Of a stretch of 38,946 nt of DNA, positions 3,136 through 38,946 are shown one piece after another. The notes beneath the pieces were generated by a model, which saw nothing but the letters and a program-made list of their open reading frames with translations, made no database searches and was not told where the DNA came from. Position numbers and translations under genes: made by a program. Source of the DNA: Escherichia coli. Lineage in GTDB: Bacteria; Pseudomonadota; Gammaproteobacteria; Enterobacterales; Enterobacteriaceae. The stretch lies in assembly GCF_003334255.1 (NCBI RefSeq), contig NZ_QOWU01000055.1. One strand, given 5' to 3'. The first letter of the stretch is position 1. Each line of letters opens with the position of its first letter.

Positions 3136-5397
3136 ATGATCAAGTTATCTGAAAAAGGCGTGTTTCTCGCCAGTAATAACGAAATAATTGCCGAAGAACA
3201 TTTCACCGGCGAAATTAAAAAAGAAGAAGCCAAAAAAGGCACTATTGCCTGGTCTATTCTCTCTTCGCATAATACGTCCGGAAATATGGATAAACTTAAA
3301 ATTAAGTTTGATTCATTAGCCTCTCACGATATTACCTTTGTTGGTATTGTACAGACCGCTAAAGCGTCCGGTATGGAACGTTTCCCGCTGCCGTATGTGC
3401 TGACCAACTGCCATAACTCACTCTGCGCCGTCGGCGGCACTATTAACGGTGATGACCATGTTTTTGGTTTATCGGCGGCCCAGCGTTATGGCGGTATTTT
3501 TGTGCCTCCGCATATTGCGGTCATCCATCAATATATGCGTGAGATGATGGCAGGCGGCGGCAAAATGATCCTCGGGTCAGACAGCCACACCCGTTACGGT
3601 GCATTAGGGACAATGGCAGTCGGTGAGGGCGGCGGTGAGTTGGTAAAACAGCTGCTTAATGACACCTGGGATATCGACTATCCGGGCGTGGTTGCGGTGC
3701 ATCTGACCGGAAAACCTGCGCCGTATGTGGGGCCACAGGATGTGGCGCTGGCTATCATTGGCGCGGTGTTCAAAAACGGTTACGTCAAAAACAAAGTCAT
3801 GGAGTTCGTTGGACCGGGCGTTAGCGCGCTCTCTACCGATTTCCGTAACAGCGTTGACGTGATGACCACTGAAACGACCTGTTTAAGTTCTGTCTGGCAA
3901 ACCGATGAAGAAGTCCATAACTGGCTGGCGCTGCACGGTCGCGGCCAGGATTACTGCCAGCTTAACCCTCAACCGATGGCGTACTACGATGGCTGCATCA
4001 GCGTTGATTTAAGCGCCATCAAACCAATGATTGCGCTGCCGTTCCACCCGAGCAACGTGTATGAAATCGACACACTGAACCAGAACCTGACCGACATTCT
4101 GCGTGAGATTGAAATTGAGTCCGAACGCGTGGCGCACGGTAAAGCCAAACTCTCGCTGCTGGATAAAGTGGAAAATGGTCGCCTGAAAGTGCAGCAGGGG
4201 ATTATCGCGGGCTGTTCTGGCGGTAACTACGAAAACGTCATCGCGGCGGCGAATGCACTGCGCGGTCAATCCTGTGGCAATGACACCTTCTCGCTGGCAG
4301 TTTACCCGTCATCACAGCCGGTGTTTATGGATCTCGCCAAAAAAGGTGTGGTAGCAGATTTGATTGGCGCAGGCGCAATCATCAGAACCGCGTTCTGCGG
4401 CCCATGCTTTGGCGCGGGCGATACGCCAATCAACAACGGTTTGAGTATTCGCCACACCACGCGTAACTTCCCGAACCGCGAAGGCTCTAAGCCAGCTAAT
4501 GGGCAGATGTCAGCGGTGGCGTTGATGGACGCTCGTTCTATCGCTGCGACTGCGGCAAACGGTGGCTATTTAACCTCTGCCAGCGAACTTGATTGCTGGG
4601 ACAACGTGCCGGAGTACGCCTTCGATGTAACGCCGTATAAAAACCGTGTTTATCAGGGCTTTGTGAAAGGGGCAACTCAGCAACCGCTGATTTACGGGCC
4701 GAACATTAAAGACTGGCCGGAATTGGGTGCGCTGACTGACAATATCGTCCTGAAAGTGTGCTCGAAGATCCTCGACGAAGTGACCACCACCGACGAACTG
4801 ATTCCTTCCGGTGAAACCTCTTCTTATCGTTCAAATCCGATTGGTCTGGCGGAGTTTACCCTGTCTCGCCGCGATCCCGGTTATGTTAGCAGAAGTAAAG
4901 CGACTGCTGAGCTGGAAAATCAGCGTCTGGCGGGGAATGTCAGCGAGCTGACAGAGGTGTTTGCGCGCATTAAGCAGATTGCTGGTCAGGAGCATATTGA
5001 TCCGCTGCAAACTGAAATTGGCAGCATGGTCTATGCGGTGAAACCAGGCGATGGTTCTGCGCGTGAACAGGCGGCGAGCTGCCAGCGTGTGATTGGCGGT
5101 CTGGCGAATATTGCCGAGGAGTACGCGACTAAACGCTATCGTTCTAACGTCATCAACTGGGGGATGTTACCGCTGCAAATGGCGGAAGTACCAACCTTTG
5201 AAGTGGGGGATTACATTTACATCCCTGGCATTAAAGCGGCGCTGGATAATCCGGGTACGACGTTTAAAGGTTATGTGATCCATGAAGATGCGCCGGTAAC
5301 GGAAATTACGCTCTATATGGAAAGTCTGACTGCTGAAGAGCGCGAGATTATCAAGGCGGGTAGTTTGATTAACTTCAATAAAAACCGTCAGATGTAA
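3136..5397 (+). CDS. ybhJ: Aconitase-family protein (putative hydratase/dehydratase)
   Basis: ORF track frame 3112..5397; ATG at 3136 preferred (GGAG 6 nt upstream) giving 753 aa. Aconitase-family resemblance across the whole length. Confidence 0.85.
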
Positions 5398-5409
5398 AAA
5401 GCGCCATGT

Positions 5410-5617
<208 letters not shown>

Positions 5618-13158: not shown

Positions 13159-15180
<2,022 letters not shown>

Positions 15181-15217
15181 CAGGATAGCGAAGAAGACTG
15201 ATGACAAACGGAAAACA

Positions 15218-15315
15218 GCCTGATGCGCTACGCTTATCAGGCCTACATTTTCTCCGCAATATATTGAATTTGCGCGGTTTGTAGGCCGGATAAGGCGTTC
15301 ACGCCGCATCCGGCA
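15218..15315. repeat. BIME (two inverted REP elements) downstream of uvrB
   Basis: GCCTGATGCGCTACGCTTATCAGGCCTAC (15218-15246) and GTAGGCCGGATAAGGCGTTCACGCCGCATCCGGCA (15281-15315) with a conserved linker. Confidence 0.85.
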
Positions 15316-15371
15316 TAAACAACGCGCACTTTGTCTTCAATAGGAAGCCGGAATTTTCCTTCGGATTTCCG

Positions 15372-16529: not shown

Positions 16530-16676
16530 CACGCTAGTATCGGCATAACCACTAAACACTCTAGCCTCTGCACCTGGGTCAACTGATACGGTGCTTTGGC
16601 CGTGACAATGCTCGTAAAGATTGCCACCAGGGCGAAGGAAGAAATGACTTCGCCTCCCGTATCTGGAAAGGTGTAC
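16530..16676 (+). ncRNA. Moco riboswitch (cis-regulatory RNA) in the moaA 5' leader
   Basis: Leader ends with GAAGGAAGAAATGACTTCGCCTCCCG just before the moaA start, as expected for the molybdenum-cofactor RNA motif. The 5' boundary is approximate and no structure was computed. Confidence 0.55.
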
Positions 16677-17666
16677 ATGGCTTCACAACTGACTGATGCA
16701 TTTGCGCGTAAGTTTTACTACTTGCGCCTGTCGATTACCGATGTGTGTAACTTTCGTTGCACCTACTGCCTGCCGGATGGCTACAAACCGAGCGGCGTCA
16801 CCAATAAAGGCTTTCTTACCGTCGATGAAATTCGCCGGGTTACGCGCGCCTTCGCCAGTCTGGGCACCGAAAAAGTGCGCCTGACAGGAGGAGAGCCGTC
16901 TTTACGCCGCGACTTTACCGATATCATCGCCGCTGTGCGGGAAAACGACGCTATCCGCCAGATTGCGGTCACAACCAATGGTTACCGTCTGGAACGCGAT
17001 GTGGCGAGCTGGCGCGATGCGGGACTTACTGGCATTAACGTCAGTGTCGACAGTCTGGACGCCCGCCAGTTTCACGCTATTACCGGGCAGGATAAATTCA
17101 ACCAGGTCATGGCAGGGATTGATGCTGCATTTGAGGCCGGTTTTGAGAAGGTCAAAGTCAATACCGTGCTGATGCGTGATGTTAATCATCACCAGCTCGA
17201 CACCTTTCTGAACTGGATCCAGCATCGCCCTATCCAGCTGCGTTTCATCGAACTGATGGAAACGGGCGAGGGCAGCGAGCTCTTCCGTAAGCATCACATC
17301 TCTGGTCAGGTTCTGCGTGACGAGCTACTGCGTCGCGGCTGGATCCACCAATTACGTCAACGCAGCGACGGTCCCGCGCAAGTCTTTTGCCATCCAGATT
17401 ACGCCGGAGAGATTGGCCTTATCATGCCGTATGAAAAAGACTTCTGCGCCACTTGCAACCGCCTGCGCGTTTCCTCCATTGGTAAACTCCATCTCTGCCT
17501 GTTTGGTGAAGGCGGCGTTAACCTGCGCGATCTGCTGGAAGACGATACCCAGCAACAGGCGCTGGAAGCGCGTATTTCAGCGGCGCTGCGGGAGAAGAAA
17601 CAGACCCATTTCCTGCATCAAAACAACACCGGTATTACGCAAAACTTATCGTACATTGGCGGCTAA
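16677..17666 (+). CDS. moaA: GTP 3',8-cyclase (molybdenum cofactor biosynthesis protein A, radical SAM)
   Basis: ORF track frame 16596..17666; ATG at 16677 ([31 protein letters not shown]) giving 329 aa. Confidence 0.95.
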
Positions 17667-17687
17667 AACGTCAAAAGGAGAGATCAG

Positions 17688-18200
17688 ATGAGTCAGGTAA
17701 GCACTGAATTTATCCCGACCCGTATTGCTATTCTTACGGTTTCTAATCGTCGCGGTGAAGAAGACGATACCTCCGGTCACTATCTGCGCGATTCGGCGCA
17801 AGAAGCGGGCCATCACGTTGTCGATAAAGCCATTGTGAAAGAAAACCGCTACGCTATTCGCGCTCAGGTATCTGCGTGGATCGCCAGCGACGATGTACAA
17901 GTGGTATTGATTACGGGTGGTACTGGCCTGACGGAAGGTGATCAGGCTCCCGAAGCATTGCTGCCGTTGTTCGACCGTGAAGTTGAAGGTTTTGGTGAAG
18001 TGTTCCGGATGTTGTCGTTTGAAGAGATTGGCACTTCCACGTTGCAATCTCGTGCGGTAGCGGGCGTCGCCAACAAAACGCTGATTTTCGCCATGCCGGG
18101 TTCGACCAAAGCGTGCCGTACCGCATGGGAAAATATCATCGCGCCGCAGCTGGATGCCCGTACGCGTCCGTGTAATTTCCATCCACATTTGAAGAAATAA
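17688..18200 (+). CDS. moaB: Molybdenum cofactor biosynthesis protein B
   Basis: 170-aa MoaB/MogA-fold ORF in the moa operon. Confidence 0.93.
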
Positions 18201-18202
18201 GT

Positions 18203-18688
18203 ATGTCGCAACTGACCCATATCAACGCCGCTGGCGAAGCGCACATGGTGGATGTCTCCGCCAAAGCGGAAACCGTGCGTGAAGCGCGGGCGGAAGCCTT
18301 TGTCACCATGCGCAGCGAGACGCTGGCGATGATTATTGATGGTCGCCACCACAAAGGCGACGTATTTGCCACTGCGCGTATTGCCGGTATTCAGGCGGCA
18401 AAACGCACCTGGGATCTGATCCCGCTCTGTCATCCGCTGATGCTCAGCAAAGTTGAAGTCAATTTACAGGCCGAGCCGGAGCACAATCGGGTGCGTATAG
18501 AAACCTTATGCCGCCTGACCGGGAAAACCGGTGTCGAAATGGAAGCATTAACCGCGGCCTCCGTGGCGGCGCTGACCATTTATGACATGTGCAAAGCGGT
18601 GCAAAAAGATATGGTGATTGGTCCGGTACGTTTGCTGGCGAAGAGCGGCGGCAAGTCGGGTGACTTTAAGGTGGAAGCGGATGATTAA
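18203..18688 (+). CDS. moaC: Cyclic pyranopterin monophosphate synthase accessory protein
   Basis: 161-aa ORF; operon position. Confidence 0.93.
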
Positions 18689-18926
18689 AGTTCTTTTTTT
18701 CGCCCAGGTGCGCGAGTTGGTGGGAACAGATGCAACCGAAGTGGCTGCGGATTTCCCAACTGTTGAAGCGTTACGCCAGCACATGGCTGCGCAGAGCGAT
18801 AGCTGGGCGCTGGCGCTGGAAGATGGCAAATTACTGGCTGCCGTCAACCAGACGCTGGTGAGTTTTGACCATCCGCTGACTGACGGCGACGAAGTAGCTT
18901 TCTTCCCGCCGGTAACCGGAGGTTAA
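18681..18926 (+). CDS. moaD: Molybdopterin synthase sulfur-carrier subunit
   Basis: ORF track frame 18618..18926; ATG at 18681 ([12 protein letters not shown]) giving 81 aa ending in GG; overlaps moaC stop by 8 bp. Confidence 0.9.
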
Positions 18927-18927
18927 G

Positions 18928-19380
18928 ATGGCAGAAACCAAAATTGTTGTTGGTCCGCAGCCGTTCAGCGTAGGAGAAGAGTACCCGTGGCTGGCGGAGC
19001 GTGACGAAGACGGTGCGGTAGTCACCTTTACTGGTAAGGTGCGCAACCATAACCTGGGCGACAGCGTCAACGCATTAACCCTCGAACACTATCCGGGGAT
19101 GACTGAAAAAGCACTGGCAGAAATTGTTGATGAAGCGCGTAACCGCTGGCCGCTGGGGCGCGTCACTGTGATTCACCGCATCGGGGAATTATGGCCGGGC
19201 GATGAAATCGTTTTTGTCGGTGTCACCAGTGCGCATCGCAGCAGTGCGTTTGAAGCCGGGCAGTTTATTATGGATTATCTCAAAACCCGCGCACCGTTCT
19301 GGAAGCGCGAAGCCACGCCGGAAGGCGACCGCTGGGTTGAAGCTCGGGAGAGCGATCAGCAGGCGGCAAAACGCTGGTAG
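18928..19380 (+). CDS. moaE: Molybdopterin synthase catalytic subunit
   Basis: 150-aa ORF starting 2 bp after moaD. Confidence 0.93.
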   Translation: MAETKIVVGPQPFSVGEEYPWLAERDEDGAVVTFTGKVRNHNLGDSVNALTLEHYPGMTEKALAEIVDEARNRWPLGRVTVIHRIGELWPGDEIVFVGVTSAHRSSAFEAGQFIMDYLKTRAPFWKREATPEGDRWVEARESDQQAAKRW

Positions 19381-30504: not shown

Positions 30505-31869
30505 ATGTCTTTCGATTCTTTGGGTTTAAGCCCTGATATCCTGCGCGCCGTTGCCGAGCAGGGTTACCGTGAACCCACCCCTATTCAGCAGCAGGCGATC
30601 CCTGCGGTGCTGGAAGGCCGCGACCTGATGGCTAGCGCCCAGACCGGCACCGGCAAAACAGCGGGCTTTACGCTGCCGCTGTTGCAACACCTGATCACTC
30701 GCCAGCCGCACGCCAAAGGGCGTCGTCCGGTACGTGCGCTCATTCTTACCCCGACCCGTGAACTGGCGGCGCAGATTGGCGAAAACGTCCGTGATTACAG
30801 CAAATACCTGAACATTCGTTCGCTGGTGGTGTTTGGTGGTGTGAGTATTAACCTGCAGATGATGAAACTGCGTGGCGGCGTTGATGTGCTGGTGGCAACC
30901 CCGGGACGTTTGCTGGACCTGGAACATCAGAATGCAGTGAAGCTGGATCAGGTTGAAATCCTCGTCCTCGATGAAGCTGACCGCATGCTCGACATGGGCT
31001 TTATCCACGATATCCGTCGCGTGTTAACAAAACTACCTGCGAAGCGCCAGAACCTGTTATTCTCCGCGACCTTCTCTGACGATATTAAAGCCCTGGCGGA
31101 AAAACTGTTGCACAACCCGCTGGAAATCGAAGTGGCACGCCGCAATACCGCGTCTGATCAGGTGACCCAGCACGTTCACTTTGTCGATAAGAAACGCAAA
31201 CGCGAATTGCTGTCGCACATGATTGGGAAAGGGAACTGGCAGCAGGTGCTGGTGTTTACCCGTACCAAACACGGCGCTAACCATCTGGCTGAACAGCTCA
31301 ATAAAGATGGCATCCGTAGTGCGGCGATCCACGGCAATAAATCGCAAGGTGCGCGTACTCGTGCGCTGGCTGATTTTAAATCGGGCGATATTCGTGTACT
31401 GGTGGCAACTGACATCGCTGCGCGCGGCCTGGATATTGAAGAGCTGCCGCACGTCGTCAACTATGAACTGCCAAACGTACCTGAAGATTATGTCCACCGT
31501 ATCGGGCGTACCGGTCGTGCGGCTGCTACCGGTGAAGCGTTGTCGCTGGTGTGTGTTGATGAACACAAACTGCTGCGTGATATCGAAAAACTGCTGAAAA
31601 AAGAGATCCCGCGCATTGCGATTCCGGGCTATGAGCCGGACCCGTCAATCAAAGCCGAACCGATCCAGAACGGTCGCCAGCAACGTGGCGGCGGCGGTCG
31701 TGGGCAAGGTGGTGGTCGCGGTCAACAGCAACCACGCCGTGGGGAAGGTGGCGCAAAATCTGCAAGCGCGAAACCTGCAGAAAAACCGTCTCGCCGCCTC
31801 GGCGATGCCAAACCGGCAGGCGAACAACAACGTCGCCGCCGTCCGCGTAAACCTGCCGCTGCGCAGTAA
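30505..31869 (+). CDS. rhlE: ATP-dependent DEAD-box RNA helicase
   Basis: 454-aa ORF with Q-motif, Walker A (AQTGTGKT), DEAD box (LVLDEADRM) and an Arg/Gly-rich C-terminal tail. Confidence 0.95.
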
Positions 31870-31875
31870 TCTTTT

Positions 31876-31896
31876 ATGCCGGGCTATGCCCGGCAT
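31876..31896 (+). other. Stem-loop (ATGCCGGGC/GCCCGGCAT, 3-nt loop) directly after the rhlE stop
   Basis: Perfect 9-bp inverted repeat; no T-run follows, so probably a 3' stabilising hairpin rather than a classical intrinsic terminator. Confidence 0.45.
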
Positions 31897-31921
31897 CAGG
31901 CTGATGAACAAACGCAAAACT

Positions 31922-32020
<99 letters not shown>

Positions 32021-32100
32021 TTTCACAACAAGCACTTGTCAGCAATTTGAGAACACGGGAAAAAATTTATCTGTTTTACCGCCCATAAGCCACCGAGACG

Positions 32101-32583
32101 TTACTTCTCTATAGCCAATTGTTCGCGCAACTCCATTAAAAGGTAGCCCAGTCGATTCTTGCCCTTACCATGACCACCGTCTCCCCAGTAAGCATCGTTT
32201 TCCGTATGCTCAACCAGTTTTGCGGGCGCGGTTGCCAGCAAGAGCGCACGCAGTTCTGCATGCTGTTCGAATTTAGCGCGAAGTGCTTTTCGCATCACCT
32301 GTTCTTTGACCGACTCCCAGTTTTTACGCAGAGGCTTAGAACGATCGCGCCCCATGCGTGCGGCGACCATAGGGGAAGAAACCCGACGGATCTCTTCGCG
32401 GTATTTTTCATCAAGGAATTTTTGTGCCTGAAAATAGTGTTCTGAGGTGGGCCAGGTTTTCCCGTCAACCTTGATGGGCCAGGCGGCAAAGTTAGAAAAA
32501 TCACCGTAGTCATCGCTGGTGCTGTAGAAATTTATGATGGTGTCTTGCATGACGTGTTGGATCCTTTGTGCTCGAACGGGCAT
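32101..32583 (-). CDS. ybiA: NADAR/DUF1768-family N-glycosidase (riboflavin-intermediate hydrolase)
   Basis: 160-aa ORF; divergent from dinG. Confidence 0.85.
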   Translation of the reverse strand: MPVRAQRIQHVMQDTIINFYSTSDDYGDFSNFAAWPIKVDGKTWPTSEHYFQAQKFLDEKYREEIRRVSSPMVAARMGRDRSKPLRKNWESVKEQVMRKALRAKFEQHAELRALLLATAPAKLVEHTENDAYWGDGGHGKGKNRLGYLLMELREQLAIEK

Positions 32584-32668
32584 TAAACCGCATTATGTTG
32601 GTGGTTATTGCGAGCCGCTTTCCAGAAACAGAAAAACCATTACCCCTGAAAACCGAAAAATGCCACAA

Positions 32669-37165: not shown

Positions 37166-37294
37166 ACTTGTGCTGGACGTAGCGTAAACGCCTGATCCGT
37201 CCAACGGTTCGGATTTTGTAGGCCTGATAAGACGCGGTAGCGTCGCATCAGGCATCTGTTGCCGGATGCGGCGTAAACGCCTTATCCGTCCTAC
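37166..37294. repeat. REP/BIME cluster downstream of ybiJ
   Basis: GTAGGCCTGATAAGACGCGGTAGCGTCGCATCAGGC (37218-37253) and GCCGGATGCGGCGTAAACGCCTTATCCGTCCTAC (37261-37294), plus a partial REP-like segment upstream. Confidence 0.8.
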
Positions 37295-37297
37295 GAA

Positions 37298-38840: not shown

Positions 38841-38883
38841 ACAATTTCTCCAAAAAGTGGGGCCTGCGCCCATAAGCGCTAAC

Positions 38884-38946
38884 TTAAGGGTTGAACCATC
38901 TGAAGAATGCGACGCCTCGGTGCCTCGTTAAGACGATGCCTCGCGT
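38884..38946 (-). CDS. 3' end of an upstream minus-strand gene (by synteny possibly the catecholate siderophore receptor fiu); partial
   Basis: Open minus-strand frame entering from the window edge and stopping at 38884-38886, 43 bp upstream of ybiX. Too short to identify from sequence; the assignment rests on synteny only. Confidence 0.25.

Follow-up and report, generated by a model that had tools for sequence, protein, structure and literature searches.

The REP pairs that follow uvrB and rhlE in Escherichia coli are, with a probability of roughly 90%, independent, old and ordinary members of the BIME-1 (RIB/RIP) family, which are alike through the closeness of each to the family consensus and have undergone no recent copying or conversion. 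A preliminary description of this DNA had presented them as near-identical BIME units that share their linker as well as their REP palindromes. The REP pairs are indeed BIMEs; the shared linker, however, is not peculiar to the pair, being the L motif of the whole BIME-1/RIB family and also the subject of an Rfam family. The literature has described BIME-1/RIB elements, their IHF-binding L linker and rearrangements mediated by REPs since the early 1990s, and the kind of element is already known.

Both copies lie in a 38,946-nt stretch of DNA, referred to here as the window, which spans ybhH to ybiX. The window is K-12-like and is 99.96% identical to MG1655 (NC_000913.3) over positions 78-38871.

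Anatomy of the two copies and of their family

The segments at 15218-15315 (copy 1) and 31922-32020 (copy 2) are direct repeats, both running from Y to Z1 on the plus strand, with an offset of 16,704 bp. This agrees with the earlier account of two REP pairs in the same orientation, about 16.7 kb apart, and the gene context given there, the 3' ends of uvrB and rhlE, is also correct: each element lies between convergent genes. Copy 1 occupies the uvrB>/<ybhK gap, where the Y REP begins 38 nt past the uvrB stop at 15180, and copy 2 occupies the rhlE>/<ybiA gap, where the Y REP begins 53 nt past the rhlE stop at 31869. There is one unit per locus, in single, non-tandem form.

A pairwise alignment of the two segments, which the preliminary description had proposed as a check, yields 90 identical columns of 100 when the 98 nt of the first are aligned globally with the 99 nt of the second. 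The exact runs shared by the copies measure 29, 22, 18 and 15 nt. The description of the copies as alike almost base for base holds for the REPs (29/29 positions in the Y REP; 34/35, or 97%, in the Z1 REP) and for the linker core GCAATATATTGAATTTGC (18/18), but it fails at the linker edges, the entire linker being only 74% identical. Similarity extends about 24 nt to the left and about 32 nt to the right of the two segments. Family BLAST matches have corresponding limits, starting at about 15195 and ending at about 15341-15349 for copy 1, and starting at about 31898 and ending at about 32046-32051 for copy 2. Because the conserved flanks belong to it, the repeat unit measures about 154 nt (15194-15347; 31898-32051), and over these full units the copies are 83.5% identical (132/158 columns).

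Read along the plus strand, the unit is composed of a flank with CTGATGAcAAACGnAAAAC, an inverted Y REP running to CAGGCCTAC, a linker of 34 or 35 nt, a Z1 REP that in both copies runs from GTAGGCCGGATAAGGCG to CATCCGGCA, and a flank ending in ACAACnnGCACTTTGTCnnCAAT (Table 1). The GTAG/CTAC tags at the feet of the REP stems are readable in both copies, and both match the strict REP-end pattern. The diagnostic sequence of copy 1 is CCTACATTTTCTCCGCAA, and the unique sequence to the right of copy 2 is TTTGAGAACACGGGAAAAAATT. For both strands of both copies the predicted folds, which consist either of two REP hairpins or of one long Y:Z1 stem, have z-scores of -4.1 to -5.1, and none of 200 shuffled sequences folds as well. 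Each linker also contains a site that resembles the IHF consensus. The pattern is matched 39 times in the window against about 30 expected, a match by itself being weak; the site falls on the best-conserved linker columns of a 102-copy alignment.

Table 1. Features of the two BIME-1 units and of the native hairpins beside them (positions in the window)
Feature	Position	Strand	Basis
Copy 1, complete BIME-1 unit, 154 nt	15194..15347	+	Family BLAST limits and empty-site allele
Copy 1, left flank motif CTGATGACAAACGGAAAACA	15198..15217	+	102-copy alignment, columns mostly ~60-80%; 90% identical to copy 2
Copy 1, Y-type REP, inverted, ending CAGGCCTAC (complement of GTAG)	15218..15246	+	Read from sequence; hairpin in predicted fold
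Copy 1, L linker, 34 nt	15247..15280	+	Family core TGCAATATATTGAATTTGCA; Rfam RF02751 match
Copy 1, IHF-consensus-like site ATTCAATATATTG, 1 mismatch to WATCAANNNNTTR	15257..15269	-	Pattern match
Copy 1, Z1-type REP GTAGGCCGGATAAGGCGTTCACGCCGCATCCGGCA	15281..15315	+	Sequence, repeat family D1; hairpin in predicted fold
Copy 1, right flank motif TAAACAACGCGCACTTTGTCTTCAATAGGAAG	15316..15347	+	Family consensus TGAACAAAGCGCACTTTGTCAGCAATCT, ~60-80% per column
Right half of native uvrB/ybhK intergenic hairpin, split by the BIME-1 unit	15348..15371	+	Intact in empty-site allele; terminator-like scan match 15348-15364
Native rhlE 3' hairpin ATGCCGGGCTATGCCCGGCAT, outside the repeat; BIME-1 unit starts directly after	31877..31897	+	Kept in SCU-109, E. 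albertii and SCPM-O-B-8794
Copy 2, complete BIME-1 unit, 154 nt	31898..32051	+	Family BLAST limits and SCU-109 divergence point
Copy 2, Y-type REP, inverted	31922..31950	+	Sequence, alignment to copy 1
Copy 2, L linker, 35 nt	31951..31985	+	Family core; Rfam ES036 match
Copy 2, IHF-consensus-like site ATTCAATATATTG, 1 mismatch to WATCAANNNNTTR	31961..31973	-	Pattern match
Copy 2, Z1-type REP	31986..32020	+	Repeat family D1; 97% identical to copy 1

The extent of the family was determined by scanning one genome per bacterial species with the pattern CAGGCCTAC-N28-42-GTAGGCCGGATAAG, in which the REP ends are fixed and the linker is free. Among the matches listed there are at least 128 Y-linker-Z1 elements at no fewer than 120 loci and in at least 6 taxa, among them E. 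albertii, E. coli-like species, Escherichia sp. E1V33, Pseudocitrobacter, Citrobacter and others. The linker is 35 nt long in 81 of the 128 listed elements and 34 nt long in 21 (102/128 together), and about 100 of the 128 contain the core TGCAATATATTGAATTTGCA. An alignment of 102 copies with their flanks gives a consensus of 147 columns, in which the linker core is 80-99% conserved and the outer flanks mostly about 60-80%. The core found in both of the present copies is the family consensus. Within E. coli, megablast with a 156-nt query places the sequence at a median of at least 40 sites per complete genome, partial REP matches included. A perfect enterobacterial BIME-1 was also found on a 262-nt contig of the Firmicute Desulfosporosinus sp. 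OT, most likely as E. coli contamination of that assembly.

BIME-1 is defined as a z1 and a y REP present in a single copy, with a long, well-conserved L linker and a frequent IHF site (PMC3333891; PMC2817692). Its literature, under the names BIME-1, RIB (reiterative IHF BIME) and RIP, is represented by Gilson 1991, Boccard and Prentki 1993, and Bachellier 1994 and 1999, as cited in PMC3333891. Binding of IHF to the L linker has been published for the family (Boccard and Prentki 1993, as cited in PMC3333891; PMC2817692), and an IHF ChIP-seq paper (PMC3333857) makes no mention of REP or RIB sites. Like BIME-1/RIB elements, both copies consist of Y and Z1 REPs in inverse orientation with the GTAG/CTAC tags at the stem feet, and both have the long L linker (34 and 35 nt) with its conserved core and IHF-type consensus site in a single, non-tandem element that lies at a transcription unit's 3' end. 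No difference from BIME-1/RIB was found; what is added here is the unit of about 154 nt, which includes conserved outer flanks. These flanks we take to be, in all probability, the published outer 'A/B' motifs of BIME-1.

The same linkers match an Rfam model of a different description, ES036 (CssrF; RF02751), on the minus strand at 15239-15280 (43.4 bits) and 31943-31985 (43.3 bits), both above the gathering score of 37.6. Since ES036 is filed as an sRNA family, and the linker core can form a predicted 5-bp hairpin, the linkers might be taken for sRNA genes with minus-strand transcripts, to which the REPs are incidental. This is unlikely. The 43-nt model corresponds to no more than the L motif, read in reverse complement, plus the CTAC end of the Y REP. 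No promoter-like site was found around either copy on either strand, and on the minus strand the elements fall in the 3' regions of ybhK and ybiA, so that a 3'-UTR fragment is the simplest interpretation of any RNA from them. A literature search on ES036/CssrF found nothing relevant, and the sRNA paper of Shinhara 2011 uses other names. The Rfam matches are consistent with the identification of both linkers as the BIME-1 L motif.

Occupied and empty sites

Alleles that lack the repeats mark the ends of the unit. In strain 2020S05-235, exactly the 154 nt of copy 1 are absent, and an intact hairpin, ACGAAGCCGGAAtattcTTCCGGCTTCGT, is present between uvrB and ybhK; since both edges have GAAG, the boundary can be fixed only to within 4 nt. 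In strain SCU-109, which is without the rhlE BIME, similarity to K-12 ends at 31897/31898, just past the rhlE 3' hairpin. Each unit sits in or beside a native 3' hairpin. In strain E69 the hairpin sequence flanks the BIME of the uvrB gap on both sides.

In its context, the uvrB copy occurs in 3,676 (68%) of 5,426 complete E. coli genomes. About 32% of the genomes lack it at this site, and most of these show the exact 154-nt absence. The rhlE copy is present in its context in 4,301. The uvrB-ybhK gap (15181-15371) has at least three alleles in E. coli: the BIME-1 unit, an empty gap of 37 nt with the intact hairpin, and a distinct G+C-rich repeat, CCCCTCGCCCCTCCGGAGAGAGGGTTAGGGTGAGGGG.

The rhlE-dinG gap (31870-32600) is also variable among strains. 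O157:H7 has an espX2 effector island in place of the BIME-1 and the ybiA segment, and SCU-109 has a RelE/ParE toxin-antitoxin module there; other strains, and also E. albertii, have a truncated ybiA. Two strains, LI60C3 and B7A, have insertions of the REP-specific elements IS1397 (IS3 family) and IS621 (IS110 family) within or adjacent to the rhlE BIME-1; similarity there breaks off within 31947-32002, where the Y REP ends and inside the Z1 REP. The partial matches to the rhlE copy that result were considered as recombination breakpoints and rejected, since they are these IS621 and IS1397 insertions.

As between gain and loss as the origin of the polymorphism at the uvrB gap, the unit at the same site in E. 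albertii favours loss. The uvrB-ybhK unit acts as a discrete 154-nt element whose ends lie beyond the REPs, and the empty allele could be the product of a natural, footprint-free excision of a BIME-1, an explanation that we consider rather doubtful. Copy 1 resembles the REPIN/RAYT (TnpA-REP) elements in being an inverted REP doublet and a discrete unit with occupied and empty sites. It differs from them, as does copy 2, in that the insertion is ancient and, from one species to the next, fixed at one site, and mobility here is putative. There is no tnpA-REP gene within the window.

Possible recombination between the copies

The preliminary description had proposed the two copies as potential recombination substrates, whose exchange would delete or duplicate ybhK through rhlE. 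Their direct orientation and the documented exchanges between other REPs agree with this proposal, but recombinants between them do not appear among sequenced genomes. The two predicted junctions were built as sequences of 1.3 kb each, with the crossover inside the shared linker, and were searched for in the 5,426 complete E. coli genomes at a cover of at least 80% in one place. The deletion junction (uvrB-BIME-ybiA) occurs in 0 of the 5,426 genomes, as does the duplication junction (rhlE-BIME-ybhK), while the parental uvrB junction, used as a positive control in the same search, was recovered from 5,390. Thus, the strains with deletions or duplications bounded by these BIMEs for which the preliminary description had suggested a search are not among these genomes. 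The moaABCDE genes (16596-19380), which lie in the middle of the interval, are present in 5,425 of the 5,426. The exceptions are the single genome with no match to moaABCDE, two matches on plasmids and a few chromosomes with two places, and none of these, the genome without the genes included, is tied to a BIME-BIME junction. Upstream of moaA, at 16545-16689 on the plus strand, Rfam RF01055 identifies a molybdenum cofactor riboswitch (103.6 bits).

Rearrangements between REPs are well documented elsewhere and include a deletion of 37.9 kb between REP320 and REP324 in MG1655 (PMC7193553) and REP-mediated or REP-bounded lac duplications of 18-49 kb on F'128 (cited in PMC8763031). These events resemble the present case in that direct REP/BIME repeats tens of kb apart serve as short homologies; they differ in that their recombinants are documented, whereas none is found between these two copies in 5,426 genomes. 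Efficient RecA-dependent exchange requires a minimum of about 23-27 bp of uninterrupted identity. The longest exact run between the copies, 29 bp, is barely at this threshold, and because uninterrupted identity is so near the RecA minimum, any exchange should be inefficient and rare.

The two copies are also surrounded by other possible partners. With a median of at least 40 matching places per E. coli genome, partial REP matches among them, this pair is one of many that could recombine. Two further BIME clusters, tandem and of the BIME-2 or an atypical kind, lie in the window itself at 5421-5616 and 37171-37297, and match Rfam naRNA4 (RF02564) at 5492-5562 (plus strand) and 37221-37291 (minus strand). 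REPs at 5486-5616 and 37171-37297 match the Z REPs of both copies, or their complements, at 92-97% identity, and these clusters are therefore equally plausible recombination partners. BIME-2 and atypical clusters (gyrase-binding; naRNA4) share their REP building blocks with both copies, but differ from them in tandem iteration, in Z2 REPs and in short S linkers without the L/IHF motif. The naRNA4 model also scores 38.3 bits over 15284-15320, under its gathering score of 59.5.

If the pair were a significant recombination hot spot, it would recurrently delete or amplify the ybhK-moa-ybh-rhlE interval. Besides the direct orientation and the events in MG1655 and on F'128, this explanation can draw on the count that at least 2,551 of the 5,426 genomes must carry both copies (by inclusion-exclusion, 3,676 + 4,301 - 5,426). 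It is nevertheless distinctly unlikely, given the 5,426 genomes free of either junction, the near-universal moaABCDE, the short exact identity, the dozens of other BIME and REP partners per genome, including the two clusters in the window, and the coexistence of the copies since before the E. albertii split with no fixed exchange. Finished genomes are poor evidence on transient duplications, which are unstable and in assemblies often appear collapsed, or on deletions, which lose molybdenum cofactor synthesis and would be removed by selection; rare transient events may for these reasons still occur. Unequal crossover of the 16.7-kb interval is thus possible in principle, as a rare and generic property of all REP/BIME copies that has left no trace in sequenced genomes.

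Colinearity with MG1655 breaks down at both ends of the window. The matches to positions 1-77 carry an annotated IS1 transposase, and this stretch is the end of an IS1 element; at the other end, 38872-38946, the sequence opens with CATAAGCGCTAACTTAAGGGTTG, which is the terminus of a multi-copy element. In the source strain, the K-12-like segment of 38.8 kb therefore lies between two IS elements, the second of which is presumably IS186-like. The junction at ybiX is identical in 87 genomes.

Relation of the copies to each other and to their family

Over the 147 family columns, the two K-12 copies are 85.7% identical to each other, against a mean of 75% for all pairs of the family, and each is closer still to the family consensus (87.8% for copy 1 and 89.8% for copy 2). 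An identity this high or higher is shown by 11% of all family pairs, and 21 members of the family match copy 2 no less closely than copy 1 does. When the BIME-1 pairs of a single Escherichia genome are compared, 4-6% of them attain 85.7%. The two copies are thus more alike than is usual in the family without being an outlier.

Comparison with other species separates the two loci. The K-12 uvrB copy has identities of 0.94 to its ortholog in E1V33 and of 0.90 to those in E69 and E. albertii, and the K-12 rhlE copy has identities of 0.96 to the ortholog in E. albertii and 0.92 to that in SCPM-O-B-8794. The paralogs are less alike, at 0.857 in K-12 and 0.864 for the uvrB and rhlE copies of E. albertii. 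Each locus has its own diagnostic bases and 1-nt indels common to several species, and neither insertion point differs between K-12, E. albertii and the cryptic clades. Orthologs that are closer (0.90-0.96) than the partner copy (0.857), together with the shared insertion points, argue that the copies evolved independently since before the split of E. coli and E. albertii, and nothing in these alignments indicates gene conversion or recent copying.

A special relation between the two, in which recent local copying or ongoing gene conversion keeps them near-identical, is highly unlikely in view of these comparisons. It could be suggested by the short distance of just 16.7 kb, by an identity in the top 4-6% of within-genome Escherichia pairs, and by the few states common to both copies that differ from the family consensus. 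However, the consensus is dominated by Pseudocitrobacter copies, so that the shared non-consensus states may just mark an Escherichia subfamily. Furthermore, each copy is nearer to its ortholog in E. albertii or the cryptic clades than to its partner, the locus-specific substitutions and 1-nt indels have been kept across species, and both insertions, at identical points, are older than the split of E. coli and E. albertii. A recent duplication or conversion was rejected on the same ground, orthologs being closer than paralogs. Because the two are among the more similar pairs within a genome, one of the neighbouring copies may still have been the ancient source of the other. A chance likeness of G+C-rich palindromes is rejected outright, since hundreds of homologous copies exist and BLAST aligns the two over 150 nt with E = 5.6e-39.

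What ordinary BIME-1 members would do at these loci is suggested by the literature on the family. In the 3' untranslated RNA of uvrB and rhlE, or on the opposite strand in that of ybhK and ybiA, each of the two REPs would fold into a stable stem-loop, with the effect of slowing degradation by 3'-exonucleases or of attenuating transcription. At the DNA level, the L linker would be bound by IHF. BIMEs are targeted by the REP-associated transposase TnpA-REP and by REP-specific IS elements (PMC3333891), and the two copies may likewise be among their targets.

The identity of the linkers is a trait of the family and matters little beyond correct annotation. The useful outcome is a negative one: there is no sign of gene conversion, and among 5,426 finished genomes not one has a deletion or duplication that runs from one copy to the other. 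Presence or absence of the unit varies at both gaps, as is typical of BIME loci, and this variation could be used to mark strains. If the empty uvrB-ybhK allele did arise by excision of a discrete unit, this polymorphism, and likewise that of the rhlE copy, would offer a route to study the mobility of REP doublets, for example by TnpA-REP, in E. coli populations.
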